DNA of 64,000 nucleotides from an uncultured Dehalococcoidia bacterium. GTDB taxonomy: Bacteria; Chloroflexota; Dehalococcoidia; DSTF01; JACRBR01. The stretch lies in NCBI GenBank assembly GCA_964458665.1, contig CAYWOO010000042.1, positions 2,987 through 66,986 of the forward strand. The letters are read 5' to 3'. Position 1 is the stretch's first letter. Every line of letters begins with the position of its first letter. A model generated the notes under the pieces. That model was not told the DNA's origin, searched no databases, and saw nothing but the letters and a program-made list of their open reading frames with translations. This document shows, one piece after another, positions 15,772 to 47,921 of the stretch. The position numbers and the translations under genes were made by a program.

Positions 15772-16551
15772 ATGCCAGCACGCATGAACGCACAGGCAAC
15801 CGCGGACGACGTAGCGGCATCGCTCAAACGAGACGGCTATGCCATCGTCGCGCGCCTGCTCTCGCCAGCTGAAGCGGCGGCGAAGCGCGCCGAGCTAACG
15901 CGCATCCTCGCGGAGACGCCGGAGGGCCGCAACGACTTCGAGGGCTTCAAGACACGCCGCATCTACGCGCTCTTCGCGAAGACACGCGCCTTCGACGAGC
16001 CGGCCACGCACCCCCTCGTCCTTGGCGTCCTCGACCGCGTCCTCGGCCCCAGCTACCAGCTCAGCGCTCCCGTTGGCATCGAGATCCATCCCGGTGAGAC
16101 CGCGCAGGTGCTGCACACCGACGACGGCATCTACCCGATCGCCCGCCCCCACCAGGAACTCGTGCTCAACATCATGTGGCCGCTCGACGACTTCACCGAG
16201 GAGAACGGCGCCACGCGCGTCGTGCCCGGCAGCCACCTCTGGACCGACAAGCGCCCCGACGAATCGACGCCCGTGGAGTTGGCGACGATGCCCGCTGGCT
16301 CCGTCATGTTCTTCGTCGGCAGCGTCTTCCACGGCGGCGGCGCCAACAACAGCAGCAAGCCGCGCCTCGGTACGATCATCGAATACGTCAGTGGCTGGCT
16401 GCGCCCGCAGGAGAACCACATCCTCGCCGTCCCGCGCGAGATGGTGAAGACCCTAACGCCGCGTCTGCAGGAGCTGCTCGGCTACAACATCCACCCGCCC
16501 TTCGTCGGCAACGTAGACGGCCGCCATCCGCGGAAGCCGTTGGAAGCTTGA
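15772..16551 (+). CDS. Phytanoyl-CoA dioxygenase (PhyH) family Fe(II)/2-oxoglutarate oxygenase
   Basis: HxD facial triad VLHTDDG, a distal His in FHGGGAN, and typical length. Confidence 0.85.
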   Translation: MPARMNAQATADDVAASLKRDGYAIVARLLSPAEAAAKRAELTRILAETPEGRNDFEGFKTRRIYALFAKTRAFDEPATHPLVLGVLDRVLGPSYQLSAPVGIEIHPGETAQVLHTDDGIYPIARPHQELVLNIMWPLDDFTEENGATRVVPGSHLWTDKRPDESTPVELATMPAGSVMFFVGSVFHGGGANNSSKPRLGTIIEYVSGWLRPQENHILAVPREMVKTLTPRLQELLGYNIHPPFVGNVDGRHPRKPLEA

Positions 16552-16686: not shown

Positions 16687-16707
16687 TTCGCATGGCGGGA
16701 GGCCTGC

Positions 16708-16767
16708 GTCCCGCGTCCCGCGTCCCGCGTCCCGCTTCTCGCTTCTCGTTTCCCGCTTCCCGCGTCC
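16708..16767. repeat. Heptanucleotide tandem array (GTCCCGC x4, then TTCTCGC/TTCTCGT/TTCCCGC x2)
   Basis: Strict 7-nt periodicity over about 8.5 units, ending 4 nt before the CAP gene stop codon. Confidence 0.9.
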
Positions 16768-16770
16768 AAG

Positions 16771-17676
16771 CTACGCTGGCCCCGTGAAGATGATCGTGAA
16801 GTACTTCATCCCGGACGAGTCGATGACCAGCGCAATGCCCATGTCCGTGTAGTGCGGGTTGACGATGTTCTCGCGGTGCGGCGGGCTGTTCCAAAGCGCG
16901 ATGTCCGCCACACCCACAGCCTCGCCGTCGGGATAGTTGTTTTTCGCGAGATTCTCGCCCGCCCAACCGTACGGAACCCCGTGCCGGTCCATCAGCGTGA
17001 ACGCGTTGTCGCCCGTCACCGGGCTAACGTGCGCAAAGTAGTTGTGGTCGGCCATGTCTTGCGAGCGAATGCGGGCGATACCGTTCAGGTACCCGTTCGC
17101 GCGCAGCGGTGGCAGGTTCTGCGCGGCGCGTCGGCGGTTCGTGTCATCGAACAGCTCCTGCGAATGCGCGTCCATGGGCGAGGTATCGAGCCCGGTCGGC
17201 TGCGCGGCCGGCGGCGCGGGCGGTGGCGCAGGCGTCGATGTCGGAGCCGGAGCTGTGGGCGGAGGCTTGGCGGCGACCGGACGTGCGGGCGATGGCTGCG
17301 CACGCGGGGTCGACGTCGGCTGCGCGGCCGGCGGCGCGGGGGGTGGCGCAGGCGTAGCTGTCGGCGGCGCCGCGGTCGCCGTGGGCTGTGCCGCGGTCTG
17401 CTCGTATTTCTCGATCGCGGCGAGTGTGGCACGATCGGCGGCCGTCAGGCTGGGCGGCGTTTCGTGCGGGCGCGCTACGGGAGCTCCGCTGCCGGTCGTC
17501 GGCGTGCGTAACGCGTCGGCTCGACCGCCTCCCGCGCTCGACGCTCCAGTGACCGATGACGCCGCGAAGATGGCGATCGTCGCAGCGCTCGCCAATCCGA
17601 GTGCCGCCGAGAGCCGCCCGCGCGTACACCACCGAATGAGTCGAGAAGTCGCGGGCGCGCTGTCGTCGTCGAACAT
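16771..17676 (-). CDS. Secreted CAP/SCP (YkwD-like) domain protein with a Pro-rich repeat linker
   Basis: The C-terminal CAP domain reads NYFAHVSP...GENLA...WNSPPHRENI...YTDMGIA. The linker holds two 41-nt near-identical repeats (17195-17235 and 17315-17355) encoding TPAPPPAPPAAQPT. Confidence 0.8.
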   Translation of the reverse strand: MFDDDSAPATSRLIRWCTRGRLSAALGLASAATIAIFAASSVTGASSAGGGRADALRTPTTGSGAPVARPHETPPSLTAADRATLAAIEKYEQTAAQPTATAAPPTATPAPPPAPPAAQPTSTPRAQPSPARPVAAKPPPTAPAPTSTPAPPPAPPAAQPTGLDTSPMDAHSQELFDDTNRRRAAQNLPPLRANGYLNGIARIRSQDMADHNYFAHVSPVTGDNAFTLMDRHGVPYGWAGENLAKNNYPDGEAVGVADIALWNSPPHRENIVNPHYTDMGIALVIDSSGMKYFTIIFTGPA

Positions 17677-20144: not shown

Positions 20145-21323
20145 ATGCGTGGCCGATACGTCCGCAAGACCTGGCAGCACAACCCCGACCTCTACGCGCC
20201 CGCCCGCTATCGCAAGGCATGCACCTACGATGCTTTCATCCCCGATGGCGTCGAAGGCCTACAGCTCCAACTGCCCGGCGAACTCGTCGCAGCGATCTCG
20301 GAAGCCGAGAACGCGATCGCCCGCCTCAATTCCGGATCGACGCCTCATCTCGCTCCTCTTGCTCGTCTTCTCCTGCGAACGGAATCGATCGCATCGTCCA
20401 AGGTGGAAGGTCTACAGGTCAATGCTCGCGCTCTTGCGCGCGCCGAAGCAAAGCAGGATGCCGGGCGCAGCATCGGCGCCGACGCCGTAGAGATCCTGGC
20501 GAGCGTCGACGCGATGGAACTCGCGATCGAACGAGCGGTGGACGGACGTGACATCCAGCTAGGCGATCTGCGCGACATCCACACCGCGCTACTCGCGCGC
20601 TCCTCGCCCAGGATCGCTGGCAACATCCGCACCGTGCAGAACTGGATCGGCGGCAACGACCACAACCCCTGCGGCGCGGTCTTTGTCCCACCACCCCCGG
20701 AACTGGTCGGCGATTTGTTGGCCGATCTCTGCGCCTTCAGCAACGACGATGCGCTTCCACCGCTCGTGCAGGCCGCCATCGCACATGCGCAGTTCGAAAC
20801 CATCCATCCGTTCGAGGATGGCAATGGGCGCACCGGGCGCGCGCTCGTACAGGTCGTCCTGCGACGCAGAGGCATCGCGTCGTCGTACGTCCCGCCGATC
20901 AGCGTGATGCTCGCCAAGCACAAAGACACGTACTTGCTGGGACTGACAGACTTCCGCGGAGGCAACGTCGATGCGTGGCTCGCCGTCTTCGCGGAAGCGA
21001 CAGCATCGGCCGCTGCACTGGCGCGCCGCTACATCGGCCTGCTGGCCGAAACGCGAGAGCGATGGCGGGACCAACTGCGTACGATCCAGCCGCGCTCCGA
21101 CGCTGCCGCCTGGTCGATCATCGACCTCCTTCCAGCGCATCCCGTGATCACCGTACGCACCGCCGTCGCGGCGACTGGCCGCACACGGCCCGCCATCGTC
21201 AACGCGCTCGATCAACTCACCGCGACCGGCGTCCTGCTGCCGATCGCGGAATCGCCCAGAAACAGGGCGTGGGAAGCTGCCGGCTTGCTGGAACTGATCG
21301 TCGGCTTGGAAGAAGGAACGTAG
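20145..21323 (+). CDS. fic: Fic family protein (class II: N-terminal inhibitory motif; C-terminal wHTH-like domain)
   Basis: Fic core HPFEDGNGRTGRAL and the inhibitory-helix motif S-x-x-x-E-G (SSKVEG). Confidence 0.9.
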   Translation: MRGRYVRKTWQHNPDLYAPARYRKACTYDAFIPDGVEGLQLQLPGELVAAISEAENAIARLNSGSTPHLAPLARLLLRTESIASSKVEGLQVNARALARAEAKQDAGRSIGADAVEILASVDAMELAIERAVDGRDIQLGDLRDIHTALLARSSPRIAGNIRTVQNWIGGNDHNPCGAVFVPPPPELVGDLLADLCAFSNDDALPPLVQAAIAHAQFETIHPFEDGNGRTGRALVQVVLRRRGIASSYVPPISVMLAKHKDTYLLGLTDFRGGNVDAWLAVFAEATASAAALARRYIGLLAETRERWRDQLRTIQPRSDAAAWSIIDLLPAHPVITVRTAVAATGRTRPAIVNALDQLTATGVLLPIAESPRNRAWEAAGLLELIVGLEEGT

Positions 21324-21330
21324 CTGTCGA

Positions 21331-21361
21331 TTCGCGACCGAGACCTCGCGCGAGTCGCGAA
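21331..21361. terminator. Hairpin between the convergent fic and mutL genes
   Basis: TTCGCGAC-15 nt-GTCGCGAA fills the 38-nt gap between the two stop codons. Confidence 0.45.
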
Positions 21362-23146
21362 CTACTTCCGCCGGAACTCCCGCGCGATCGCATCCGCAGT
21401 CAGATGGATCATTGTCGGGCGGCCGTGCGGGCAGGTGCGGGGCGATTCGCTCGATTCGAGCTGCTGGAGCAGTTCGCGTTGCTCGACGGGCGACATCGCC
21501 ATGCCGGCACGGACGGCGGCGTGGCACGCCAGCGACGCGGCGACACGATGCTGTGGGTCGCGCGACGCCTCGCTCTGCGCATCCGCATCGCGCGCGATGC
21601 GATCGAGCAGCTCAGCGATATGACGCGGCACGTCGTCGCCGGCCAGCTGCGACGGCACGGTGCGCACGACGAACGCCGAGTCGCCGAAGTGTTCGATGTC
21701 GAAGCCGAGCCCCTCGAACGCGGCCGCATGTTCGGCGACGAGCGCTCGATGCGGCGCGCTCAGCTCGATCGTCAATGGCTCCAGCAGCCCCTGCACGTCG
21801 GGAGTACCCGCGCGCACCGCCGCCAGCGCGTGCTCGTACAGCACGCGCTCGTGCGCGGCGTGCTGGTCGACGAGATACATGCCGTCCGGCCCCTCGGCGA
21901 TGACGTACGTGTTGCCGGCCTGCCCGACCGCACGCAGCAGCGGCAGCCGCTCGATCATCGTCGCGGCGCTCACCGCTTCCCGGCTTGTACTCCTCCTCTC
22001 CCCTTGTGGGAGAGGGGGCTGGGGGGTGAGGGCCGGCCGCACCGAAAGCAGCGCCGACTGCACCGGCGTCTGCGTCAGGAACAGCGGTGGTCGCTCCGAC
22101 GGCGGCGCGCTGCCGCCAGCCCAGAGCGACGGCGACGCCGGCGGCACGGTCGCGCTATCGGAGAGCACACGCCGCACGGCGCGCTGCAGCACGCCGAAGA
22201 CGGCGCGCTCGTTGCGCAACCGCACTTCGGCCTTCGTCGGATGCACGTTGACGTCGACTTCGTCCGGCGGGATGCGCAGATCGAGCACGGCGATCGGATG
22301 GCGGCCGAAGGGCAGCATGCCCTGGTACGCCTCCTCGACGGCGAACGTCAGCGCCCGATTCTTCACCCAGCGCCGATTCACATAGAGCCCGATGTAGTTG
22401 CGCGACGCGCGATGCATCCGCGGATCGACGACGATGCCTCGTACGCCGACAGCGCCATCATGCTCGGGCGGCGCATCGATCTCGATGGCGGCCGCGGCTA
22501 TGTCGGCGCCGTACACCGCGGCGACAGCATCGGTCAGGCTGCCTCCGCCCGGCGTCTGCAGCGTCGTGCGGCCGTCGATGACGAGGTCGAATCGCACCTC
22601 CGGATAGGCCATCGCGTAGTGGCTGATCACCGACGTCACCTGCGTCGATTCGCTTCCCGGCGATCGGACGAACTTCAGGCGCGCCGGCTGCGACGAGAAG
22701 AGCCGCCGCACGCTGAACACCGTGCCGGGCGAAGCGGCGCCCGACCCCTCTTCGGCCACCTCGCCGTCGCGCACGCGGATCCGCGCGCCGACATCGTTGC
22801 CGGCCACACGCGAGATCAGCTCGACCTCGCCAGCGGCAGCGATGCTGGGCAGCGCTTCGCCGCGGAAGCCCAGTGTGGCGATGCGCCAGAGGTCCTCTTC
22901 GGCCGCCACCTTGCTCGTCGCGTGGCGCTCGAACGCCAGCCGCAGTTCGCCCGGTTCGATGCCGCAGCCGTTATCGGCGACGCGGATCAGCGCCAGCCCG
23001 CCTTCGCGCACCTCGACCGAGATCTGCGTGGCGCCAGCGTCCAGCGAGTTTTCAATAAGCTCTTTGACGACGGAAGCGGGGCGCTCGATCACCTCGCCGG
23101 CCGCGATCTTCGCCGCCTCGTGCGGAGCAAGGATCCGAATCGGCAT
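21362..23146 (-). CDS. mutL: DNA mismatch repair protein MutL
   Basis: N-terminal GHKL ATPase (IAAGEVIERPASVVKELIENSLDAG, DNGCGI) and C-terminal dimerisation domain (ACHAAVRAG, CPHGRPT). ATG 23146 follows AAGGAGG. Confidence 0.93.
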   Translation of the reverse strand: MPIRILAPHEAAKIAAGEVIERPASVVKELIENSLDAGATQISVEVREGGLALIRVADNGCGIEPGELRLAFERHATSKVAAEEDLWRIATLGFRGEALPSIAAAGEVELISRVAGNDVGARIRVRDGEVAEEGSGAASPGTVFSVRRLFSSQPARLKFVRSPGSESTQVTSVISHYAMAYPEVRFDLVIDGRTTLQTPGGGSLTDAVAAVYGADIAAAAIEIDAPPEHDGAVGVRGIVVDPRMHRASRNYIGLYVNRRWVKNRALTFAVEEAYQGMLPFGRHPIAVLDLRIPPDEVDVNVHPTKAEVRLRNERAVFGVLQRAVRRVLSDSATVPPASPSLWAGGSAPPSERPPLFLTQTPVQSALLSVRPALTPQPPLPQGERRSTSREAVSAATMIERLPLLRAVGQAGNTYVIAEGPDGMYLVDQHAAHERVLYEHALAAVRAGTPDVQGLLEPLTIELSAPHRALVAEHAAAFEGLGFDIEHFGDSAFVVRTVPSQLAGDDVPRHIAELLDRIARDADAQSEASRDPQHRVAASLACHAAVRAGMAMSPVEQRELLQQLESSESPRTCPHGRPTMIHLTADAIAREFRRK

Positions 23147-23180
23147 CGTCGCGACCTCCTTTCGCGAGGATAGCATGGGC

Positions 23181-23253
23181 GGTCGTCAGTCGTCAGTCAT
23201 CAGTCGTCGGGCAGGCGGCGTTCCTGACGACTAACGACCGACGACGGACGACC
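23181..23253. repeat. Two inverted heptamer arrays (GTCGTCA-type and TGACGAC-type) forming a ~31-bp imperfect palindrome
   Basis: 23181-23211 is complementary to 23223-23253 at 26 of 31 positions, with an 11-nt loop. It sits in the divergent mutL / S8 peptidase intergenic region. Confidence 0.85.
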
Positions 23254-23305
23254 ACCAACATGCTATCCTCGCGGCGTTGGCAGGAGGGCACTGGAGGAAG
23301 AGGCT

Positions 23306-24685
23306 GTGGGTCGGACGCCCTGTGGCGCACGGATGATGGCGCCGCTGATCGTTGCCGTTATGTGCGCCGCAATGCTGGCCGCTTCGCGTGATCGTGCACC
23401 CCTTCCCGGCGTCGCTTACTACGAGCCGACCGGCGCGACCGGCTCGACAGCAATCGTCGTCCGCGCACACAGCAACGGCCGCCTCGATGCCATCGCCGCG
23501 ACGGCATCTCGACACGACTACACGATCGTGGGGCGCGCACCCGATCCACCCGCGCTCGAACTGAGGCCGCCGGTCGGCATCAGCATCGAGCGCGCCGTAA
23601 CGGCGTTCGCGTCGCTGCCCGGCGTCGCGTACGCCGAACCCGCGTACCCGATCCGGCGGAGCGACGTGCCGACCGCGCCGCTATATGCCAAAGAGTCCGC
23701 GTATCTGGCAGCCGTGCACGCGCCCGAGGCCTGGGACATCGAAAAGGGGCGCGCGAGTGTTATCGTCGCGATCCTCGATACCGGCCTCGATGTCACACAT
23801 CCGGACATGCAGGGCCGCGTCTGGACGAATCCCGGGGAGATCGACGCCAACGGCATCGACGACGACGGCAACGGTTGCATCGACGACGCGCATGGCTGCA
23901 CATTCATCGCCAACGCGGCGGACGGTTGCGCATCGCCCTCCAACGGCGACGTGCACGACGATCTGGGCCACGGCACGTTCGTCTCGGGTGTCGTCGCCGC
24001 CAGCGGCAACGGCGGCATGGTGGGCGTCGCGCGCGGCGTCACGATCATGCCGGTGAAAGTGCTCGATTGCACGGGCGGTGGCAGCTCGTTCGCGTTCGCG
24101 CAGGGCATCCTCTACGCCGTGAAGAACGGCGCATCGCTGCTTAACGTCAGCCTCGGCGGGCCGACCGACTCGGCGTACATCCTCGAGGCGATCCGCATCG
24201 CGCGCGACAAGTACGGCGTGCTGCTGGTCGCTGCCACCGGCAACACCGGCGGCGACGTGACCTACCCCGCCCGCTATCCGGAGGTGCTCGCCGTCGGCGC
24301 GGAGTCCGCCGACCATCCAGGACAGCGCGCGCCGTTCTCCGGCGCCGGGCCGGAGGTCGATGTCGTAGCCATCGGCCAGGGTATCGTCGGCACGGTGCCG
24401 AAGGGCGCCTGCCACACGTTCCTCATCTGCGCGCCCGGCGATGACTTGCACGCCATCGGCGACGGTACATCGTTTGCCGCACCGCAGGTGACAGGGTTGG
24501 TGGCGTTGATGCTCTCGCGCAACCGCTACCTGACGCCCGACCAGATCATCAGCGTGGTAAAGGCTACCGCCGACTTGCGCGTGGGCGGCGAGCCGCCGGG
24601 TTGGGCGGGCGCCGGCCGCATCAACATGCTGCGCGCCTTGACGCCGCAGTTCCGCCTCGGTGCGCCAGGCACGACGCGCGGATAG
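23306..24685 (+). CDS. S8 family (subtilisin-like) serine peptidase, secreted
   Basis: Catalytic triad contexts AILDTGLD, HGTFVSG and GTSFAAPQVTG, plus a signal-like N-terminus. GTG 23306 follows GGAGGAAGAGG; an alternative ATG lies at 23333. Confidence 0.88.
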   Translation: MGRTPCGARMMAPLIVAVMCAAMLAASRDRAPLPGVAYYEPTGATGSTAIVVRAHSNGRLDAIAATASRHDYTIVGRAPDPPALELRPPVGISIERAVTAFASLPGVAYAEPAYPIRRSDVPTAPLYAKESAYLAAVHAPEAWDIEKGRASVIVAILDTGLDVTHPDMQGRVWTNPGEIDANGIDDDGNGCIDDAHGCTFIANAADGCASPSNGDVHDDLGHGTFVSGVVAASGNGGMVGVARGVTIMPVKVLDCTGGGSSFAFAQGILYAVKNGASLLNVSLGGPTDSAYILEAIRIARDKYGVLLVAATGNTGGDVTYPARYPEVLAVGAESADHPGQRAPFSGAGPEVDVVAIGQGIVGTVPKGACHTFLICAPGDDLHAIGDGTSFAAPQVTGLVALMLSRNRYLTPDQIISVVKATADLRVGGEPPGWAGAGRINMLRALTPQFRLGAPGTTRG

Positions 24686-24752
24686 ACGGGGGTGGATAGT
24701 GACCAGTGGCCCGTGAATGGCCAACGGCGTCCGAGCCTCTGTCCGTACTTTC

Positions 24753-24787
24753 CACCAGTCACCAGTCACCAGTCACTAGTCACCACC
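24753..24787. repeat. Heptanucleotide tandem array (CACCAGT x3, CACTAGT, CACCACC)
   Basis: 7-nt periodicity overlapping the stop codon and last codons of the minus-strand PPOX gene. Confidence 0.85.
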
Positions 24788-25184
24788 CGCTGACCTTCTC
24801 TGGGACGATCCGCAGCATGATGTTGTTGGTGTGCATGTTCTCGCCGATGTAGCGCGTGCCGTTCTCTTCACCGAGATAGCTGATCGCCAGCGCCAGGCGC
24901 CATTCGCGGCCGGGCGCCTCCTCGACGACAACGCGAGCGCGGACGAGCACCGTGTGGTACGGCGCGCGCTCGTCGTCGATGCAGAACGCAACGCGTGGAT
25001 CACGTTCGATGTTCTTGTGCTTCTGCGAACCGCGCTCGGTCAGTACGAGGAATACGCCGTCCTCGAACTTGTACCAGACCGGCGCGATGTGCGGCGTGCC
25101 ATCGCGATTCGTCGTGCCGAGCCGCCCGATGCGCGCCCTGTCGACGAACTTCAACTGTCGGTCGGTGAAGGTACTGTCAGTCAC
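24780..25184 (-). CDS. PPOX-class (pyridoxamine 5'-phosphate oxidase-like) probable F420-dependent enzyme
   Basis: Family blocks RIGRLGTTNRDGTPHIAPVWY...RDPRVAF. GTG 25184 overlaps the mutS stop (GTGA). Confidence 0.8.
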   Translation of the reverse strand: MTDSTFTDRQLKFVDRARIGRLGTTNRDGTPHIAPVWYKFEDGVFLVLTERGSQKHKNIERDPRVAFCIDDERAPYHTVLVRARVVVEEAPGREWRLALAISYLGEENGTRYIGENMHTNNIMLRIVPEKVSGW

Positions 25185-27841
25185 GATTCCTCCTGTCCTG
25201 CGCCGGAGCGGGCGCGGTCGCGCAATTCGTACAGTACACGCATGGCGTCGAGCGGCGTCATCGCGTCAAGATCGATCCCCGCCAGCTCGCGGCGCAAGCC
25301 GTCGTCTGGCGGCGTCGCGGCGAACAGCGAGAGCTGCGGCGCGTCAGCCGCGCGAGCGGATCCGGTGCGTTCGCGGCCGTCCGTCTCCAGCTCCAGCAAC
25401 ACCTCGCGGGCGCGCTGCACGACGGCCTTCGGCAGACCGGCCAGCTCGGCCACATGCACACCGTAGCTGCGATCCGCGCCGCCCGGCACAATGCGCCGCA
25501 GGAACACGATGCGCCCGCGTTCCTCTGCCACGGCGACGTTGAAGTTGCGCACGCGCGGCAGATGCCCCGCCAGATCGACCAGCTCGTGATAGTGCGTCGC
25601 GAACAGCGTCTTCGCCTGCAGGCCCGGACGGTTGTGCAGGTACTCGACGACAGCGCGGGCGATCGCCATGCCGTCGTACGTGCTGGTGCCGCGGCCGATC
25701 TCGTCGAGAATGACCAGCGAGCGCGCCGTTGCGTTGTGGAGGATCGCGCTCGTTTCGATCATCTCCACCATGAAGGTCGACTGCCCGGACGTCAGGTCGT
25801 CCCCGGCGCCGACGCGCGTGAAGACGCGGTCGGCGACGCCGATCGCGGCCGCTGACGCCGGCACGAAGCTGCCGCACTGCGCCATCAGGACGATCACAGC
25901 CACCTGGCGCAGGTACGTCGATTTCCCCGCCATGTTGGGCCCGGTGATGATGCCGATCTGCGCGCCGCTCGACGAGAGCGACGTATCATTCGGCACGAAC
26001 GCGCCTGCCGCCAGCGAACGCTCGACCATCGGGTGCCGCCCGTCGCGGATCTCGATGGCATCGCCCGTGTCCAGCGACGGGCGGGCGTAGTTGTAGCGCG
26101 CCGCCGCCTCGGCCAGCCCCCAGGCAACGTCCAGCTCTGCCACGGCGCCGGCGGTTGCCAGCAGGTGCACCGCGGCCGCCGAGACCTGAGCGCACACCTG
26201 GCGAAAGATTGCCGTCTCGATCTCGGCGGCGCGATCCTTCGCAGTGAGTATCTGGCTCTCGTACTCGCGCAGCTGCGGCGTGGCGTAACGCTCGGCGTTC
26301 ACCAGCGACTGGCGGCGCTCGTAGTGCTCCGGCGCCTGCGCTGCGTTCGCTTTGGTGATCTCGATGTAGTAGCCGAAGACGCGATTGTAGCCGACCTTCA
26401 GCGACTTGATGCCCGTCCGCTCGCGCTCGCCCGCCTCCAGCTCGGCGACGAACCGCCGCACGTCGCGTGTGATCAGCCGCAGATGGTCCAGCTCCTCCGA
26501 GAACCCAGGCCGCACGACGTTGCCGGCTTCGAGCGTCGCGCCCGGATCGTCGTTGATCGCCTGCGCGATCGCTGCCGCGACGTCGTCGCACGGCCGCAGC
26601 CGTCCTGCGATCTCGGTGATGCGCGCGTCAAACTCGCCTTCACTACCGCTCGTCGAGAGTTCCGCGCGCAGACGCGGAATCAGCTCCAACCCGCGCCGCA
26701 GCGCCACCACCTCACGCGGCTGCGCGGACCCAGCGACGATGCGGCCGGCGAGACGCTCGATGTCGGGCATCTCGCGCAGCATGTCGGAGAGCCGGGCGCG
26801 GCGCATGGCGCTCTCGTGGCAGTACGCTACGGCGTCGAGCCGGCGATCGATCGCGGCGATATCGACGAGCGGCTGGCCGAGGCGGCGGCGCAGCAGCCGC
26901 GCTCCCATCGACGTACTCGTGAGGTCCAGCGTCGCCAGCAGCGAGCCGTCGCGGCGCAGGTCGCGGCCGGCCGTGAACAGCTCCAGGTTGCGCATCGTGT
27001 GCGCATCGAGGCCAGCGTACTCGGCAGCGCGATGCGCGCGGATCGACGCAATGAGCGCGATGCTCGCCGCCTGATTCTCGCGCAGGTACATCAGCACACC
27101 ACCACACGCCGGCACCGCCGCCGATGCCCGATCGATGCCGAACGCCTCGGGCGAGGCGACGCGGAAGTGTTCCTGCACTGTTACGGTCGCCAGATCATGG
27201 TCGAACCACAGCGGCTCTACACTCGTCACGTGCATCGACGCATCGAGCCACGGCGGTGGGGCCGCGCCATCCGGGATCAGCACCTCGGCCGGACGAATGC
27301 GCGCGAGTTCCTCGGCGGCCTGCGCCTGCGCCAGCGCGCCGGCGACGAACTCGCCCGTGCTGATATCGATGTACGCGAATCCGACGTCGCCCTGCCACGG
27401 GTCAGTGCTCCCGGACCGGGCGCGGCGCGACGGCGCTAGGCACGCCAGGTAGTTGTTCGCCCGCTCGTCAAGCAGGTTGCCTTCGATGACGGTGCCCGGC
27501 GTCACAACGCGCACGACCTGACGATCGACGATGCCCTTGCTCGTCGCCGGGTCGCTCATCTGCTCGCACAGTGCGACCTTGTAGCCTTTGGCGATCAGTT
27601 TGGCGATGTAGCCGTCGACTGCGTGATACGGGATACCCGCGAGCGGCACCCGCAGACCCTTGCCCATCGGCTTCGAAGTGAGCGTTATGTCCAGTTCACG
27701 CGAGCACAGCTCCGCGTCGTCGTCGAACGTCTCGTAGAAATCACCCAGCCGGAAGAAGACGATGGCGTGCGGATAGCGCCGTTTCACGTCGAGGTATTGC
27801 CGGCGGATGGGGCTGAGGGCGTCCACGACGGGAGTGTACAA
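25181..27841 (-). CDS. mutS: DNA mismatch repair protein MutS
   Basis: N-terminal mismatch-binding block (TPIRRQYLDVKRRYPHAIVFFRLGDFYETF), Walker A GPNMAGKST, DEIGRGTSTYDG. Confidence 0.95.
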   Translation of the reverse strand: MYTPVVDALSPIRRQYLDVKRRYPHAIVFFRLGDFYETFDDDAELCSRELDITLTSKPMGKGLRVPLAGIPYHAVDGYIAKLIAKGYKVALCEQMSDPATSKGIVDRQVVRVVTPGTVIEGNLLDERANNYLACLAPSRRARSGSTDPWQGDVGFAYIDISTGEFVAGALAQAQAAEELARIRPAEVLIPDGAAPPPWLDASMHVTSVEPLWFDHDLATVTVQEHFRVASPEAFGIDRASAAVPACGGVLMYLRENQAASIALIASIRAHRAAEYAGLDAHTMRNLELFTAGRDLRRDGSLLATLDLTSTSMGARLLRRRLGQPLVDIAAIDRRLDAVAYCHESAMRRARLSDMLREMPDIERLAGRIVAGSAQPREVVALRRGLELIPRLRAELSTSGSEGEFDARITEIAGRLRPCDDVAAAIAQAINDDPGATLEAGNVVRPGFSEELDHLRLITRDVRRFVAELEAGERERTGIKSLKVGYNRVFGYYIEITKANAAQAPEHYERRQSLVNAERYATPQLREYESQILTAKDRAAEIETAIFRQVCAQVSAAAVHLLATAGAVAELDVAWGLAEAAARYNYARPSLDTGDAIEIRDGRHPMVERSLAAGAFVPNDTSLSSSGAQIGIITGPNMAGKSTYLRQVAVIVLMAQCGSFVPASAAAIGVADRVFTRVGAGDDLTSGQSTFMVEMIETSAILHNATARSLVILDEIGRGTSTYDGMAIARAVVEYLHNRPGLQAKTLFATHYHELVDLAGHLPRVRNFNVAVAEERGRIVFLRRIVPGGADRSYGVHVAELAGLPKAVVQRAREVLLELETDGRERTGSARAADAPQLSLFAATPPDDGLRRELAGIDLDAMTPLDAMRVLYELRDRARSGAGQEES

Positions 27842-28130
27842 TCGCCGGTTCGCAGTTCACAGCCGATAGCGCGTGTTTGCGGCGGGTGGTAACGATGTTG
27901 ACGCTGAGAGCGTTGAAAGATCGGCGGCCCTCGCGTGGCCTTGGGCGCGGTATACTGCTGCGCCTTCCAATCGGGCACACGCAGCTATTCTGGCCGCTCC
28001 ACGGAGGCTACCGCAGCTTGGGCGCCGACCCACATATCGCGTCGTTTCTGAGTATCCGTTGCCCGCGCGCCAGCCGCGCCGTGACAGACGCACGCTCAGC
28101 GTCAACCCGGACGAACCGCACGGAGACATC

Positions 28131-31094
28131 ATGACGAAGAAGTACGTCTACCTGTTCCACGAAGGGCACAAGGACCAGAAGGCGCTGCTCGGCGGCAAAG
28201 GCGCGAACCTCGCCGAGATGACGAACATGGGTCTGCCCGTGCCGCCCGGATTCACCGTCACCACAGAAGCCTGCAACGCCTACACCGAGGCGGGGATGCA
28301 ACTGCCGGCCGGCGTGATGGACGAAGTCAAGGCGGCGCTCGCGACCGTCGAAGAAGCATCGGGCAAGAAGCTCGGCGATGCGACGGCGCCTTTGCTGGTC
28401 TCGGTGCGGAGCGGCGCCAAGTTCTCGATGCCGGGCATGATGGACACGGTGCTCAACCTCGGCCTGAATGCGTCGACGCTGCGCGGCCTGATTGGCGCCA
28501 CGGGCAACGAGCGCTTCGCCTACGACGCGTACCGCCGCTTCATCATGATGTTTTCGGACATCGTGCTCGAGCTTGAGCGCAAGAAGTTCGACGCCATCTT
28601 CAACGACGCCAAAAAGTCCGCCGGCGTCACGGAGGACTCGCACCTGACGCCCGACGCGCTGAAGGGCGTCGTCGAGCGATTCAAGGCGCATGTGAAGTCG
28701 GAGACCGGCAGCGACTTCCCCGATGAGCCGATGCAGCAGCTGGAGCTGGCGATCCGGGCCGTCTTCAACTCCTGGAACAACGAGCGCGCGTTCCAATACC
28801 GCAACATCGAGCACATCCCGCACGACCTCGGCACCGCCGTCAACGTGCAGACGATGGTCTTCGGCAACATGGGCACGGACTCCGGCACCGGCGTCGCGTT
28901 CACGCGCGACTCTTCCACGGGCGAGCGGCGGATCAGCGGCGAGTACCTGATGAACGCGCAGGGTGAGGACGTTGTCGCCGGCATCCGCACACCATCCGAC
29001 GTCGCGCAGCTAGAGAGGGACAACCCGGCGCTCTACAAGCAGTTCGCCGACATCTGCGAGACGCTCGAGAAGCACTACCACGACATGATGGATGTCGAGT
29101 TCACCTTCGAGAAGGGCCGGCTCTACTTCCTGCAGTGCCGCGTCGCCAAGCGCGCCGCCCGCGCCGCCGTCAAGATCGCCGTCGACATGGTGCACGAGGG
29201 GCTGATCACGAAGCAGGAGGCGCTGGGCCGCCTGCCGGCGCAGCGCCTCGACGAGCTGCTGCACCCACAGCTCGACCCGCGCGTCACGACGGTATCGATC
29301 TCTGAGGCGGCCAAGCGGCTCAACGGGGCGTTGGCGTCGAAACCGGCGATGCTCTGGCTCGAAGGCGACGAGTTGAAGACGATTGCCGCGGACACCTGGC
29401 TCGCGATGCCAGCCGACGCGCGCGCGAAGGCGAACGCAGATGCGCTCGCCAGCGGATCGCGCTTCATCGAGATCGCGCGCGGCCTGCCGGCGTCCCCGGG
29501 CGCCGCCTACGGCGCGACCGTGTTCGACTCCGACGAAGCGGCGCGCCGCGGCAAGGCGGGCGAAGCCGTCGTGCTGGTGCGAGAAGAGACGTCGCCGGAC
29601 GACGTGCAGGGCATGCACGAATCGCAGGGCATCCTCACGGAGCGCGGCGGGCTGAGCAGCCACGCCGCGCTTGTAGCCCGCGGCTTCGGAAAGCCGTGTG
29701 TGGCCGGATGCGAGGCGATCTCCGTACTCGAAGACCAGCGCGTGTTCTCGATAGAAGGCGTCACCATCCACGCCGAACAGATGCTCACAATCGACGGGAC
29801 GATCGGACGCGTACTTCTCGGCGCCATCCCGACCGTGCCGCCGGTGATCTTTCCGGAGTTCGAGGAGTATCTGGGATGGGCGGATGAGGTCGCGCGGATG
29901 ACCGTGCGGACGAACGCCGACACGCCGGCCGACGCGGCGAAAGCGATCGAATTCGGAGCGAAGGGCATCGGGCTCTGCCGCACCGAGCACATGTTCCTCC
30001 ACCCCGACCGCTTGCCGGCCGTCCGCGAGATGCTGCTGGCGGCCGCCGACGCGAAGAACATGGAAGCCGAGGCGACGGCCCTGCGCAAGGAGATCGAAAA
30101 CGCCGGCGGCGAGAAGCGGCAGCGCCTTGAGGAACGCCTGACCGAGGTGCTCGGACGGATGGAAGGCCCGATGGGCCACTACGTCGGCGCCTTGGAGAAG
30201 ATCCTGCCGATGCAGCAGGGCGACTTCGAGGGCATCTTCCGCGTCATGGCGGGCAAGCCCGTCACGATCCGTCTTATCGATCCGCCGATGCACGAGTTCC
30301 TGCCGGATCACGACGCGCTGCTCGAAGAGGTGACGCGGCTGCGCATCACTGCCAAAGAATCCTCGGACCTAGTCGCGCTCGCAGCGGCGGAGAAGATGCT
30401 GGCGAACGTCAACGCCATCCGCGAACAGAACCCGATGCTGGGCCTGCGCGGCTGCCGTCTCGGCATCCTCTACCCGGAGATCAACGCCATGCAGGTGCAG
30501 GCGATCTTCCGCGCCGCCGTGAAGCTCGCCGACGAGGGCGTCGAGGTGTTCCCGGAGATCATGATCCCGCTCGTCGGCTTCGAGACAGAACTGACGTTCC
30601 TTCGCACGCTGCTCGAGACGACGGCGCGCAAGGAGATGGAGTCATCGGGCAAGCAGGTGGCGTACCAGTTCGGCACGATGATCGAGCTGCCGCGCGCGGC
30701 GCTCACCGCGGGCGAGATCGCCAAGACGGCGGAGTTCTTCTCCTTCGGCACGAACGACCTGACGCAGACCACGCTGGGCTGCAGCCGCGACGACGCCGAG
30801 GGCAAGTTCCTCAGCAAGTACATGGAGATGGGGATCCTCATCGGCAACCCGTTCGAGTCCATCGATCAGGTCGGCGTCGGTTCGCTGATGAAGATGGCGA
30901 TCGCCGCCGGCCGCGCGACGCGTCCCGGCCTCAAGCTCGGCGTCTGCGGCGAGCACGGCGGCGAGCCGATCTCGGTCGAGTTCTTCCACAACATCGGCCT
31001 CGACTACGTAAGCTGCTCCCCGTTCCGCGTACCCATCGCCCGCCTCGCCGCCGCCCAAGCAGCGCTGGGCGCCGGCACGGAGCGCGACCGCTAG
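28131..31094 (+). CDS. ppdK: Pyruvate, phosphate dikinase
   Basis: MTKKYVYLF..GGKGANLAEM, phosphohistidine TERGGLSSHAALVARG, PEP/pyruvate domain GLCRTEHMF, FFSFGTNDLTQ, CGEHGG. At 987 aa it is longer than the ~875-aa enzymes I remember. Confidence 0.93.
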   Translation: MTKKYVYLFHEGHKDQKALLGGKGANLAEMTNMGLPVPPGFTVTTEACNAYTEAGMQLPAGVMDEVKAALATVEEASGKKLGDATAPLLVSVRSGAKFSMPGMMDTVLNLGLNASTLRGLIGATGNERFAYDAYRRFIMMFSDIVLELERKKFDAIFNDAKKSAGVTEDSHLTPDALKGVVERFKAHVKSETGSDFPDEPMQQLELAIRAVFNSWNNERAFQYRNIEHIPHDLGTAVNVQTMVFGNMGTDSGTGVAFTRDSSTGERRISGEYLMNAQGEDVVAGIRTPSDVAQLERDNPALYKQFADICETLEKHYHDMMDVEFTFEKGRLYFLQCRVAKRAARAAVKIAVDMVHEGLITKQEALGRLPAQRLDELLHPQLDPRVTTVSISEAAKRLNGALASKPAMLWLEGDELKTIAADTWLAMPADARAKANADALASGSRFIEIARGLPASPGAAYGATVFDSDEAARRGKAGEAVVLVREETSPDDVQGMHESQGILTERGGLSSHAALVARGFGKPCVAGCEAISVLEDQRVFSIEGVTIHAEQMLTIDGTIGRVLLGAIPTVPPVIFPEFEEYLGWADEVARMTVRTNADTPADAAKAIEFGAKGIGLCRTEHMFLHPDRLPAVREMLLAAADAKNMEAEATALRKEIENAGGEKRQRLEERLTEVLGRMEGPMGHYVGALEKILPMQQGDFEGIFRVMAGKPVTIRLIDPPMHEFLPDHDALLEEVTRLRITAKESSDLVALAAAEKMLANVNAIREQNPMLGLRGCRLGILYPEINAMQVQAIFRAAVKLADEGVEVFPEIMIPLVGFETELTFLRTLLETTARKEMESSGKQVAYQFGTMIELPRAALTAGEIAKTAEFFSFGTNDLTQTTLGCSRDDAEGKFLSKYMEMGILIGNPFESIDQVGVGSLMKMAIAAGRATRPGLKLGVCGEHGGEPISVEFFHNIGLDYVSCSPFRVPIARLAAAQAALGAGTERDR

Positions 31095-31099
31095 ACCGT

Positions 31100-31124
31100 C
31101 CCCGATTCACCGACGAGATCGGGG
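31100..31124 (+). terminator. Hairpin after ppdK
   Basis: CCCCGAT-11 nt-ATCGGGG, 6 nt after the stop, followed by CTTGGCTCT. Confidence 0.45.
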
Positions 31125-31348
31125 CTTGGCTCTCGAATGCATGGGGTACAACAGGCTGCGCCTCTACAACCCTGCACTGTTGCTGCCGACCCAACTTTGC
31201 ATTTGCTACGAAGCTGCTAAAAGGTCCGTCGGCGCCGTAGGCCAGCTTCGGCGCGTGTTTGATACTGTGCGCAATGCGCGGCTAGAGTACGCAAGGATAA
31301 TGACGAGCGCCGTGAATGCGGCGGCAGATGCAACGAAATGAGGCAGAG

Positions 31349-32149
31349 ATGGACAACGACGACGTGATGATTGGCCGGCTGCTCAGCCGGCGCGAAGTGC
31401 TGGCGCTGTTCGGAGTGGCGGGAGCGGCGCTCGTCGTCGGCTGCTCGTCGGACGGCAAATCGACGGCGACTGCAACACCTGCGTCCTCGACTTCGCAGAT
31501 GAGCGTCGCGACGAAGGCAGCGGCAACGCAAGCATCGGCGACCTCGGGATCAGCATCAGCGCCCTCGTGCATCGTGCGGCCCGAGATGACGGAGGGCCCG
31601 TACTTCGTGGACGAGAAGCTGAATCGCTCCGACATCCGCATCGAACCGTCGGACAACAGCATCACGGCAGGTGCGCCCATCGCACTCGCGTTCAACGTGT
31701 CCCAGGTCGGCTCGGCGGGCGCGTGCACGGCGCTCGCGGACGTAACGGTCGACGTCTGGCACTGCGATGCGCTGGGCGTCTACTCCGACGTGTCCGATCC
31801 AGAATTCACAACGACGGGCAAGAAGTTCCTGCGCGGCTACCAGACGACGGACGCAAATGGCCGCGTGACGTTCACGACGATCTATCCGGGCTGGTACCAG
31901 GGCCGGACGGCCCACATCCACTTCAAGATCCGCACGTCGGCCGGACACGAGTTCACGTCGCAGCTCTTCTTCGATGACAGCCTGACAGATGTCGTGCACG
32001 CGAAGGCGCCCTACGCCTCGAAGGGAAAGCGAACGCTGCGCAACGCCGGCGACAACATCTACACAAGCGGCGGCGACCAGCTCCTGCTGGCGATGACACC
32101 GAGTGGCGACGGATACACGACGACGTTCGACATTGGGCTCCAGGTCTAG
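31349..32149 (+). CDS. Intradiol ring-cleavage dioxygenase-like protein; Tat signal and lipobox
   Basis: Twin-arginine SRREVL with a VVGCSS lipobox. Dioxygenase blocks TEGPYF, VDVWHCDALGVYS, RGYQTTDANG, YPGWYQGRTAHIHFKI. The start (31349 or 31316) is uncertain. Confidence 0.75.
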   Translation: MDNDDVMIGRLLSRREVLALFGVAGAALVVGCSSDGKSTATATPASSTSQMSVATKAAATQASATSGSASAPSCIVRPEMTEGPYFVDEKLNRSDIRIEPSDNSITAGAPIALAFNVSQVGSAGACTALADVTVDVWHCDALGVYSDVSDPEFTTTGKKFLRGYQTTDANGRVTFTTIYPGWYQGRTAHIHFKIRTSAGHEFTSQLFFDDSLTDVVHAKAPYASKGKRTLRNAGDNIYTSGGDQLLLAMTPSGDGYTTTFDIGLQV

Positions 32150-32240: not shown

Positions 32241-33476
32241 ATGAGACTGCCCGCCGCCGTGCTGAGTATCGTCTTGATCACGATCGCTACCGTCGCGTGC
32301 GGTGGTGGCAACAGCAGCACCAAAACTCCGAGCGCCGTCGCGGGAAAGACGGCTTCCGCATCCACCCTCGCGGCCGCATCACCCCGCGCTTCGGCCGGAA
32401 CACCGGTCGCGGACGCCTACACCGCGCAGCCGGCGTTGCCAGAGCTGGACTTCGGCGTCTCGATCGGCCTGCTTCCGATACCGGGCGACGATGGCTTCGC
32501 GTACCTGATCACGAAAGATGGCATGGTGCGCCGCGTCAGCATGACGGACGGCGGCGCGACACATGATGTTGTGCTCAACCTGAGTTCGCGATTGATCGAA
32601 AAGCCGGGCCAGGAGGAAGGGCTGCTGGGACTGGCCTTCGCCCCCGACTTCGCGACAAGCCGGCGGATCTACGTGAACTACACAGCAGGGCCGCCGCGCC
32701 AGGACACTGTATCGCGCTTCGTCGTTGCGGCGAACGGCGCCACCGGCGTGGCGAGCGAGGAGATTCTCCTCCAAATCGACGACCCGTACTCGAACCACAA
32801 CGGCGGCGGTATGGAGTTCGGTCCGGACGGGATGCTCTACATCGGCTTCGGCGACGGCGGCTCGGCAGGCGACCCGAAGGGCAGCGGTCAGGACAAGAAT
32901 GCCCTCCTGGGCAAGCTGCTTCGCATCGATGTATCGGGGGCGTCCGGCTACGTGGTGCCACCCGACAATCCGTTCGTCAGCGCTTCGAGCGGCGGGCGCG
33001 GCGAGGTCTGGGCGTACGGGCTGCGCAACCCGTGGCGGTTCGACTTCGATTCGGCGACCGGGCGCCTGTGGCTCTCGGACGTGGGACAAGGGACGTGGGA
33101 GGAAGTCGACCTCATCGTCGCCGGTGGCAACTACGGCTGGAACACCATGGAGGGCCCGGTCTGTTACAAATCGGGCAGCGGCTGCAACCAGGACGGCCTG
33201 ATTTTGCCGCGGGCGTCCTATTCGCACGATGGTGGCAGCTGTTCGATCACGGGCGGCTACGTCTATCACGGCACGTCGATGCCGGAGCTGGACGGATGGT
33301 ACGTGTACGGCGACTTCTGCTCCAAGAAGGTGTGGGCGCTGAACACGGCTGACGCCAGCGACCCCGTGCTGCTGACGACGAGCGTCACCGGCATCACAGC
33401 GTTCGGGAAGGACGTCGATGGCGAGATCTACATCCTCGGAATCGATGGCGCGCCGCTCAAGTTGGTACGGAAGTAG
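32241..33476 (+). CDS. PQQ-dependent sugar dehydrogenase (soluble glucose/sorbosone dehydrogenase-like) lipoprotein
   Basis: Lipobox TVACGG. Beta-propeller blocks HNGGGMEFGPDGMLY, GDGGSAGDP, GKLLRID, NPWRFDFD, GNYGW. Confidence 0.85.
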   Translation: MRLPAAVLSIVLITIATVACGGGNSSTKTPSAVAGKTASASTLAAASPRASAGTPVADAYTAQPALPELDFGVSIGLLPIPGDDGFAYLITKDGMVRRVSMTDGGATHDVVLNLSSRLIEKPGQEEGLLGLAFAPDFATSRRIYVNYTAGPPRQDTVSRFVVAANGATGVASEEILLQIDDPYSNHNGGGMEFGPDGMLYIGFGDGGSAGDPKGSGQDKNALLGKLLRIDVSGASGYVVPPDNPFVSASSGGRGEVWAYGLRNPWRFDFDSATGRLWLSDVGQGTWEEVDLIVAGGNYGWNTMEGPVCYKSGSGCNQDGLILPRASYSHDGGSCSITGGYVYHGTSMPELDGWYVYGDFCSKKVWALNTADASDPVLLTTSVTGITAFGKDVDGEIYILGIDGAPLKLVRK

Positions 33477-33510
33477 GAAACGAGAGACGGAACGCGAGAC
33501 GCGGGAACGG
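33476..33510. repeat. Heptanucleotide tandem array (GGAAACG AGAGACG GAACGCG AGACGCG GGAACGG)
   Basis: It begins on the last base of the TAG stop of the dehydrogenase gene. The units are roughly the reverse complement of those in the 16708 array. Confidence 0.8.
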
Positions 33511-44429: not shown

Positions 44430-44598
44430 CCCGGAGCGGGGGCATTCAGCCCGCGCGGTTCCACGCTGATCGCCCGTCGGCGTAGTTGGTGGTTCGTAGT
44501 TTGTAGTGCGTAGTTTGTAGTGCGTAGTTGGGGCTTGCGGTTCTGCGATCCCGGAGCGCGGGCATTCAGCCCGCGCGGTTCCACGCTGATCGCCCGTC
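44430..44598 (+). repeat. Composite repeat: two 49-nt direct repeats (44430-44478, 44550-44598; one mismatch) flanking a heptamer array (44482-44544)
   Basis: Each DR is CCCGGAGCG(G/C)GGGCATTCAGCCCGCGCGGTTCCACGCTGATCGCCCGTC, containing the GCGCGGGC-attca-GCCCGCGC hairpin. The heptamers are GTAGTTG GTGGTTC GTAGTTT GTAGTGC GTAGTTT GTAGTGC GTAGTTG. Confidence 0.9.
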
Positions 44599-47185: not shown

Positions 47186-47213
47186 CGGCGTGAGCGCCGG
47201 GGAGGTTGCGGCC

Positions 47214-47897: not shown

Positions 47898-47921
47898 TTG
47901 GTAGTTCGTGGTTGGTAGTTG
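47887..47921. repeat. Heptanucleotide tandem array (GGAGTTC GTAGTTG GTAGTTC GTGGTTG GTAGTTG)
   Basis: 7-nt periodicity spanning the ankyrin gene stop codon (47895-47897). Same unit family as 44482-44530. Confidence 0.85.

Follow-up and report, generated by a model that had tools for sequence, protein, structure and literature searches.

Short tandemly repeated repetitive (STRR) sequences, the dispersed heptamers of heterocystous cyanobacteria, have been known since about 1990, and an excess of heptamers between bacterial genes has reportedly been recognised since 2007; to our knowledge, neither has an established function or an accepted origin. The present report concerns a family of 7-nt tandem arrays found in a 64-kb stretch of DNA from an uncultured Dehalococcoidia bacterium (contig C42, positions 2987-66986, referred to throughout as the window), and extends to the remainder of that organism's genome and to its relatives. 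The arrays are polar, are anchored at stop codons and ribosome-binding sites, draw upon a small vocabulary of repeated words and are restricted to one lineage, which sets them apart from slippage products scattered at random; that vocabulary, moreover, is common to the arms of a widespread and uncharacterised gene cassette.

According to Mrazek et al. 2007, as cited in PMC4679880 and PMC4692102, heptanucleotide repeats are the commonest class of long simple sequence repeat (SSR) in most prokaryotes, and the proposal that polymerase slippage accounts for their excess is attributed in those papers to the same study. Rehm et al. 2015 described intergenic (GGGAATC)n arrays, inverted pairs included, in GC-rich Xanthomonas, as well as (GGGGAYT)n in Nostoc (PMC4692102), and TAACTGA direct repeats have been described in marine Beggiatoaceae, Cyanobacteria and Bacteroidetes (MacGregor 2015, PMC4679880). 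Genes of the PF05635 family have been observed interposed among cas genes and catalogued as associated with clustered regularly interspaced short palindromic repeats (CRISPR), with repeat arms unmentioned (PMC3936711, PMC10910872); a literature search turned up no publication that connects heptamer arms with PF05635/TIGR02436 genes. The kind of repeat is already known, and its ordered layout (polarity, and anchoring at stops and starts) and its link to the cassette appear to be undescribed in the literature searched. The original prediction, which had drawn attention to the arrays of the window, likened them to STRR, a resemblance that is supported; its further suggestion that no equivalent was known in GC-rich genomes is contradicted by the published Xanthomonas arrays (PMC4692102) and by the heptamer excess in most prokaryotes.

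Abundance, placement and polarity of the arrays

The genome (designated G000) comprises 3.27 Mb in 259 contigs, is ~66% G+C, 87% complete and ~82% coding, and encodes a MutS protein whose closest matches are soil metagenome-assembled genomes labelled Dehalococcoidia, Chloroflexota. A genome-wide search with Tandem Repeats Finder (TRF) returned 219 period-7 rows of at least 3.5 copies, which were merged into 215 arrays, and the fixed 7-nt period with varied units that had been proposed from the window thereby proved to characterise a real genome-wide family. Although ~82% of the genome is coding, 152 of the 215 arrays are intergenic. Period-7 intergenic arrays of at least 3.5 copies number 151, against 0.9 in dinucleotide shuffles of intergenic DNA, and the corresponding figures for period 8 are 38 and 0.4; among arrays of at least 4 copies genome-wide, period 7 accounts for 172, period 6 for 42 and period 8 for 26.

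The placement of the arrays was compared with a null in which each array takes a random position inside its own gap (2000 simulations), with genes assigned by a purpose-built codon-usage caller for which stops are reliable and starts approximate. No more than 5 nt separates the array end from the stop in 60 of 154 stop-facing cases, against 27.7±4.1 by random placement, and 0 of 2000 simulations reach 60; the genome-wide period-7 scan suggested in the original prediction thus does reveal enrichment at gene 3' ends. Start-facing ends within 5 nt are depleted (10 versus 20.8 expected). Start-side arrays are found just upstream of the Shine-Dalgarno sequence and are AC-rich in mRNA.

The composition of the arrays on one strand is strongly biased (G 37%, T 32%, C 17%, A 13.5%), and the orientation of that strand follows the gene. 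Where an array lies 10 nt or less from a stop, the sense strand of the gene is the G+T-rich one in 69 of 74 cases (p=2e-15); where it lies 30 nt or less from a start, the antisense strand is G+T-rich in 34 of 45. At both gene ends, then, the G+T-rich strand runs outward from the gene in the 5' to 3' direction. The polarity at stops was repeated, at 6:1, in 400 kb of a second genome of the genus (relatives were sampled in part, at 80 to 400 kb each), and the exceptions in this genome are mostly arrays of the GGTTCTA word. Neither this polarity, nor the start-side arrays upstream of Shine-Dalgarno sequences, nor the cassette link described below had been recognised in the original prediction.

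Two trivial sources of polarity were considered and rejected. The first, a by-product of the replication strand, was set aside since the GT strand matches the local G-rich strand in 63 of 93 cases (63:30), genes are only 57% co-oriented with the G-rich strand, and the 5' and 3' populations of arrays are opposite in sense, which makes the gene-end rule primary. The second, an artefact of open reading frame (ORF) definition in which AC-oriented arrays, being stop-free, lie hidden within ORFs, would add only ~5 'inward' stop cases, of which 3 carry the GGTTCTA word. Several nominally coding arrays are in reality 5' arrays lying under over-extended starts.

The stop codon of abutted genes is TAG in 52 of 69 cases, against 45% genome-wide, because the words GTAGTTY, GTAGGTT, GTTAGCG and GGTTCTAG carry TAG and the first unit often supplies the stop. 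By the same gene calls, stop usage genome-wide is TAG 45%, TGA 42% and TAA 13%, which is unusual at 66% G+C; the high usage of TAG is due in part to TAG-containing repeat words at gene ends. A terminator-like GC hairpin follows 11 of 69 stop-abutting arrays (16%), against 6.7% of control gene ends, which places at least some arrays in the 3' untranslated region (UTR), between stop and terminator. The arrays themselves were rejected as intrinsic terminators, since solo arrays do not fold and only 16% precede such a hairpin.

Gene cassettes with inverted arms

Six PF05635 genes, all well above the cut-off (97 to 130 bits) and all matching TIGR02436 as well, are present in this genome on contigs outside the window, and all six are flanked by inverted tandem arrays. 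Four of these cassettes have period-7 arms (GTAGGTK, AGTTCGT, TAGGTTY and GGTCGTC) and two have period-8 arms, and in every case the cassette spans the interval from the stop of the left gene to the Shine-Dalgarno sequence or ATG of the right gene. The left arm is G+T-rich in 5 of the 6, irrespective of the strand of the gene within; the exception, on contig C166, has compositionally neutral period-8 arms (50% G+T). Across 31 relatives, at least one such arm accompanies 52 of 53 full-length PF05635 genes and both arms accompany 32 of 53, with a polarity that is normal in 29, reversed in 9 and compositionally neutral in 14, independently of gene strand. The reversed cassettes correspond to one protein clade, with left arms of the TAGAACT/AGAACCY type; that clade carries the GGTTCTA word, which explains most of the polarity exceptions of this genome. 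The cassettes examined have protein genes on both sides, and none lies within rRNA.

The association between protein and word is close at short distances: the word is shared by 15 of 17 protein pairs of at least 70% identity, and by 0 of 949 pairs under 40%. Since gene and arms are physically linked, this association alone is no proof of recognition. At one orthologous locus, with flanks 86 to 96% identical, two cassette types are found: AGTTYGT arms with protein clade A in G000, G004, G005 and G012, and ACAGTTS arms with clade B in G002, G003 and G011, a split that is discordant with species relationships. Similarly, the C91 locus has GGTCGTC arms in G000 and TGGTGAT arms with a different protein clade in G005, with a flank 95% identical. 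In this respect, cassettes act as modules at fixed loci.

Elsewhere, several cassettes, each with its own word, alternate with paralogous genes of 1.2 to 2.5 kb (G010:C4:36400-42900), and similar alternation is seen in G002:C81, G007:C106, G007 C128 and G004:C18; the genes flanking the homologous C91 locus of G000 are acyl-CoA-dehydrogenase-like by eye. These alternating loci suggest that units of gene plus cassette were duplicated repeatedly, and that word and protein then diverged. A candidate cassette with other cargo, on C234, was rejected, as its two arrays are separate and occupy paralogous gaps within a MaoC-like tandem duplication.

The same vocabulary extends to the arrays at large. 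Roughly ten words are used again and again across dozens of loci, a single word at as many as 54, and the commonest is GGTCGTC. Within one mismatch, 126 of the 215 arrays (59%) match the genome's own four heptamer cassette words, against a null of 27.6, and 52 further arrays match cassette words of relatives, so that a cassette word is present in 83% overall; the 37 arrays that match none include several GC-rich coding-region pseudo-repeats. An inverted partner is detectable in the expected polarity for 36 of the 215 arrays, and in reverse polarity for 7. Paired arms fold at -75 to -86 kcal/mol and solo arms do not: solo arrays display no significant RNA structure, and their AC-rich strand folds at only 0 to -1.3 kcal/mol.

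A second family of arrays, of period 8 (GCACAGAG / GCACGAAG, often after 'GGTTCACC') adjoins heptamer arrays genome-wide, as at G000 C129:35583-35800, C157:3631-3800 and C103:15540-15620. Short-loop inverted pairs of the GAAGATGG/TCCATCCTC word lie within long, high-scoring ORFs (G000 C166:13994-15304, C199:2139-2213, C218:5787-5860 and C23:20488-20559), where they are either in-frame insertions into genes or the result of fused gene calls.

The window and its counterparts in relatives

The window, in which arrays were detected by TRF and by a purpose-built period scan, contains one gene-less hairpin and five solo arms; the full cassette is absent, and no PF05635/TIGR02436 gene is found in its 64 kb. 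The arrays are as follows.

16706-16767, minus strand: solo array of 8.9 copies (TRF), with minus-strand units GGGACGC/GGGAAGC/GAGAAGC
23163-23273, unstranded: gene-less hairpin, a 111-nt palindrome (repeat search) whose core is an inverted array pair
23182-23208: left arm of the gene-less hairpin, (GTCGTCA)x4 (TRF)
23226-23253: right arm of the gene-less hairpin, (TGACGAC-type)x4 (TRF)
24753-24785, minus strand: solo array (GGTGACT)x4.7 (TRF), overlapping the TGA stop (24780-24782) of the PNPOx gene
33477-33510, plus strand: degenerate array of ~5 units of the GGGAAGC/GGGAGAC word family (read from the sequence)
44481-44529, plus strand: solo array (GTAGTTG/GTAGTGC)x7 (TRF), 68 nt past the stop of the SDR gene
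47889-47921, plus strand: solo array (GTAGTTG/GTAGTTC)x4.7 (TRF), with the TAG stop (47895-47897) of the ankyrin gene in its second unit

The genes beside them, checked by Pfam, are as follows.

15772-16551, plus strand: PhyH
16771-17676, minus strand: CAP-domain protein
21362-23146, minus strand: MutL
23306-24685, plus strand: subtilase
24780-25184, minus strand: PNPOx
32241-33476, plus strand: glucose/sorbosone dehydrogenase (GSDH)
43628-44413, plus strand: SDR
44613-45479, minus strand: DRTGG protein
47190-47897, plus strand: ankyrin-repeat protein

Of the six or more strictly periodic arrays originally proposed, five arrays and one inverted pair were recovered. The run at 33477-33510 is degenerate; TRF assigns period 12 to part of it, and the 7-nt register is readable in the sequence. 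The four arrays that had been placed at or over stops (those beginning at 16706, 24753, 33477 and 47889) retain that position against Pfam-checked genes: the first begins 3 nt past the TAG (16771-16773) of the minus-strand CAP-domain gene, with RNA structure on neither strand, and the third directly follows the TAG (33474-33476) of the GSDH gene. The fifth, estimated at about 70 nt after the SDR stop, was measured at 68 nt and is G+T-rich on the SDR sense strand. A CRISPR array was rejected as an explanation, since the units are 7 nt and contiguous, and spacers are absent, in contrast to CRISPR repeats of 23 to 50 nt set apart by unique spacers.

The inverted pair (given originally as 23181-23253, in a family described as abutting or overlapping stops) is not at a stop. 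No Pfam family matches the plus-strand ORF at 20975-23173; the region in fact encodes MutL from the minus strand, and the pair therefore lies between the divergent starts of mutL (minus strand) and subtilase (plus strand), a gap in which the hairpin runs in the order CGCGAGGATAGCATG, (GTCGTCA)x4, loop, (TGACGAC-type)x4, CATGCTATCCTCGCG, ending 2 nt upstream of the mutL Shine-Dalgarno sequence GGAGG (23157-23161). Its RNA minimum free energy is -75.5 kcal/mol for the plus strand (z -10) and -86.4 kcal/mol for the minus strand (z -12.6). The outer 15-nt palindrome arms (CATGCTATCCTCGCG; window 23157-23177 and 23259-23273) contain TATCCT, a -10-like element immediately 5' of the mutL Shine-Dalgarno sequence; relatives that lack arrays have TACAAT or TACACT at that position (loci L231-L241), and the AC arm provides a -35-like CTGACG at a distance of ~17 to 18 nt. 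From the -10-like elements in this genome and in the array-free relatives, the repeat hairpin is taken to sit between two divergent promoters.

In the window, the arrays at 23182-23253, 44481 and 47889 have words that correspond to the arms of the C91 (GGTCGTC) and C137 (AGTTCGT/GTAGTT) cassettes; the words of the arrays at 16706 and 33477 (GGGAAGC) and at 24753 (GGTGACT) occur in cassettes only in relatives. At 87% completeness, the assembly may lack cassettes of the GGGAAGC, GGTGACT and GGAGGTT words. Two direct copies of a ~45-nt GC-hairpin repeat (…GGGGCATTCAGCCCGC…) bracket the 44481 array (window 44430-44598), and GC hairpins ending in TTCTGT follow several stop-abutting arrays elsewhere in the genome; such hairpins may be elements resembling repetitive extragenic palindromes (REP) rather than plain terminators.

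Unit gain or loss had been expected to alter the C-termini of the PNPOx (PPOX) and ankyrin proteins. The stop in fact lies in the first or second unit, and slippage downstream of the first in-frame stop is consequently silent for both. In the PNPOx gene the last codon and the stop are held by the first unit, the final TGG-TGA being its beginning, and orthologues with other words or no array also end in ...GW-stop.

Comparison with relatives demonstrated both turnover at single sites and restriction of the family to one lineage. The copy-number polymorphism anticipated by the original prediction was found at the CAP-gene stop, where five congeners have the GCGGGAR word in 9, ~4, 4, ~3 and 0 units. 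At the PNPOx stop, three close species carry three different words (G003 has (CTAGAAC)x4, and G002 has (AGTGGAT)x5 with an inverted copy), and distant relatives have no array. The mutL-subtilase hairpin occupies the orthologous site in all five members of the genus with differing copy numbers, and in G004 both of its arms have changed together (GGTCGCC/GGCGACC); the ankyrin-gene array is absent from the orthologous site in G005. Arrays number 6.7 per 100 kb in this genome and 5.5 in G001 of the same genus, against 0 to 2.5 in three other genera of the family and 0 in two genomes of the order. Individual words are similarly confined: (GGTCGTC)x3 has 89 hits in this genome and none outside the family, and (GGAAGCT)x3, with a single hit among the six genomes of the genus, is found 7 to 29 times in five other genera belonging to the same family and 6 times in one genus of the order, G026.

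Two side observations concern mutS and its surroundings. In four relatives (G001:C6:699244-701903, G007:C17:13178-15883, G012:C29:5391-8348 and G017:C60:10895-13732) the mutS match is interrupted near residue 400, where ~90 to 240 nt are inserted in a longer open frame (958 to 1030 aa), with a frame break and one TGA in G001; these may represent in-frame repeat insertions or pseudogenes. In the window (~24000-32000), GC skew changes sign, from negative at 4-28 kb to positive at 28-44 kb, with a cumulative minimum at ~28-32 kb, and gene orientation flips around mutS; this switch may mark a replication origin or terminus.

Competing readings and comparison with known systems

On balance, we favour, as somewhat more probable than not, the reading that the arrays are STRR-like, slippage-prone repeats that constitute the paired or solo arms of an intergenic hairpin element similar to the intervening sequences (IVS) of 23S rRNA. 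The family as a whole is a lineage-restricted, genome-wide set of polar 7-nt (and some 8-nt) tandem repeats, of the bacterial STRR or long-SSR kind. The full element would consist of two inverted arrays of one word around a small PF05635/TIGR02436 gene (the '23S rRNA intervening-sequence protein' family), and would occupy the gap from a stop codon to the Shine-Dalgarno sequence or start of the next gene. Its polarity is fixed, in that each strand, read 5' to 3', begins with a G+T-rich arm and ends with an A+C-rich one; as a result, the stop-side arm is GU-rich in mRNA, and the start-side arm, immediately ahead of the ribosome-binding site, is AC-rich and nearly devoid of structure. Slipped-strand mispairing would lengthen and shorten the arrays, and solo arms would be half-elements, their position and polarity inherited from the hairpin form. 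Transcribed hairpins may, by analogy with rRNA intervening sequences, serve as RNase III substrates; solo arms would contribute spacer RNA at most, and would mostly be tolerated, self-maintaining DNA.

A bolder proposal, which we consider rather unlikely, is that the words and the four-helix-bundle proteins (PF05635) form one modular system, in which (i) each protein lineage recognises its own word strand-specifically; (ii) cassettes are exchanged whole at fixed loci; and (iii) the same recognition initiates or sustains the arrays that border translation units throughout the genome. Such a system, if real, would give the bacterial heptamer excess a concrete molecular cause besides polymerase slippage.

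Several observations weigh against an origin of the arrays in the cassette element. The presence of the four-helix-bundle gene does not track array abundance among the genomes sampled: G018 has 55 matches to (GGTCGTC)x3 and lacks PF05635 genes, in G001, at 5.5 arrays per 100 kb, the only copy is broken, and G030 has PF05635 genes and zero solo arrays in 200 kb. The gene is thus neither sufficient nor, apparently, necessary for arrays. Transposase-like and reverse-transcriptase genes likewise show no correlation with the arrays. With a partner for only 36 of 215 arrays, most arrays are solo, and their descent from hairpins would have to be assumed. Cassettes of one protein clade lie at orthologous loci, and linkage with co-inheritance can explain the association of protein and word. 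Finally, the gene calls, made from codon usage, are crude, with unreliable starts.

Other candidate spreading factors were examined and rejected. Repeat addition by a reverse transcriptase, in the manner of telomerase or of a diversity-generating retroelement (DGR), was considered because the GT-rich strand of the arms runs 5' to 3' toward the centre of the element and because the cassette protein bears a likeness to Avd. Only 6 of 31 genomes carry PF00078, and the array-rich G001, G002 and G004 are not among them; the similarity of the cassette protein to DGR Avd falls below the cut-off. A REP-associated tyrosine (RAYT, or Y1) transposase does not correlate with abundance, G018 having arrays and zero Y1 genes. 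Antitermination of the HutP type, which involves UAG every 7 nt upstream of terminators, was rejected as PF09021 is absent in 31 of 31 genomes, with a positive B. subtilis control.

Among the alternatives to the cassette-arm reading, selection of the arrays as cis-acting RNA survives best, and is nonetheless judged improbable. The GU-rich arrays after stops and AC-rich arrays before ribosome-binding sites would be repeated binding sites or structure-free spacers, acting as a ribosome standby site at the 5' end, as a protein-binding or Rho-excluding 3' UTR, or in Rho loading on antisense RNA, with each subunit of a binding protein, such as a cold-shock protein or the four-helix-bundle protein, occupying one unit and so fixing the 7-nt register. 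The exact placement at translation-unit edges with mirror polarity, the near absence of structure (~0 kcal/mol) in AC-strand RNA, the retention of an array at a site while its word changes, the covariation of GGTCGCC with GGCGACC in the G004 arms and the excess of terminator-like hairpins after stop-abutting arrays are all consistent with such a role, as is the binding of heptamer repeats by CspB, one protein per heptamer, in a report cited in PMC4679880. However, the words are too varied for a single sequence-specific binder; the same sites lack arrays in sister genera and some congeners, so that no array is essential; and HutP, the UAG binder with a 7-nt period, is absent throughout.

The idea that the arrays are a mutational by-product, in which slippage favours 7-nt units through the footprint of the polymerase, as proposed by Mrazek et al. 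2007, and arrays are born in place and survive just outside coding DNA, with no element and no function, carries little weight in our estimation. It accords with the prominence of heptamers as the commonest long SSR across many phyla, with period 7 as the top class also in 80 mutS loci from many phyla, with copy-number differences among congeneric genomes, and with the inclusion of the stop in many stop-abutting arrays (TAG in 52 of 69), as duplication of a stop-containing 7-mer would give. It does not account for ~10 words at up to 54 loci each with a cassette word in 83% of arrays, for a polarity of 69:5, for matched inverted arms of the same words around one gene family, or for a commonest word, GGTCGTC, that has no stop codon; and hardly any arrays occur in the other genera of the family and order, whose GC content is similar and whose polymerases are presumably the same.

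A final alternative, that a 7-nt unit bearing TAG or TGA presents a stop in every frame within 21 nt, as a safeguard against frameshifting and readthrough in a genome that is GC-rich and offers few stops out of frame, would suit the sense-strand TAG or TGA of six of ~ten words, the arrays that start at or over stops and the enrichment of TAG among abutted genes, but is very improbable, given that GGTCGTC (the most abundant word), GCGGGAA and GGAGGTT are stop-free, that the same words occur upstream of starts in the opposite orientation and flank cassette genes, that equally GC-rich relatives have no arrays, and that stop-free words, as the data suggest, are anchored at stops as strongly as stop-containing ones.

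For annotators, such arrays mark true gene ends in GC-rich genomes, and are confusable with CRISPR-like repeats.

Several described systems share features with the arrays and cassettes. In common with the cyanobacterial STRR, several heptamer families are dispersed in the non-coding DNA of one lineage, and the CACCAGT word of this genome is one base from the STRR CCCCAGT; the two differ in phylum (here Chloroflexota, Dehalococcoidia, rather than heterocystous cyanobacteria) and in GC content. As with the Xanthomonas and Nostoc heptamers (PMC4692102), the 7-nt tandem units are strongly over-represented and intergenic in GC-rich genomes, some form inverted pairs between convergent genes, and length and sequence vary among close relatives at one gene pair. 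The present arrays differ in comprising ~10 words rather than one, none of them a G-quadruplex motif, and it is here that polarity and anchoring at stops and starts are quantified and the link to cassette arms is made. Similarly to the TAACTGA repeats, they are intergenic and oriented relative to genes, often directly upstream of starts and in some cases over an upstream stop; unlike those repeats, which consist of one word in 2 to 6 copies directed mostly toward starts, they draw upon many words, their largest class abuts stops, and their orientations at the two gene ends are mirror images.

Resemblance to REP and to bacterial interspersed mosaic elements (BIME) extends to short, abundant, polar intergenic repeats at gene ends, and REP-like GC hairpins adjoin some of the arrays; in contrast to REP, which are single imperfect palindromes with a GTAG head, the present repeats are tandem arrays, with solo arrays that have neither palindrome nor fold. 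The cassettes, finally, recall the ORF-bearing 23S rRNA IVS (S23p/IVP proteins) of Leptospira, Coxiella and other bacteria, in that a PF05635/TIGR02436 protein is encoded in the loop of a long inverted repeat whose stem, if transcribed, would be double-stranded RNA. They depart from those IVS in lying between protein-coding genes and in having stems made of tandem 7- or 8-nt words, and processing by RNase III would in their case be expected by analogy.

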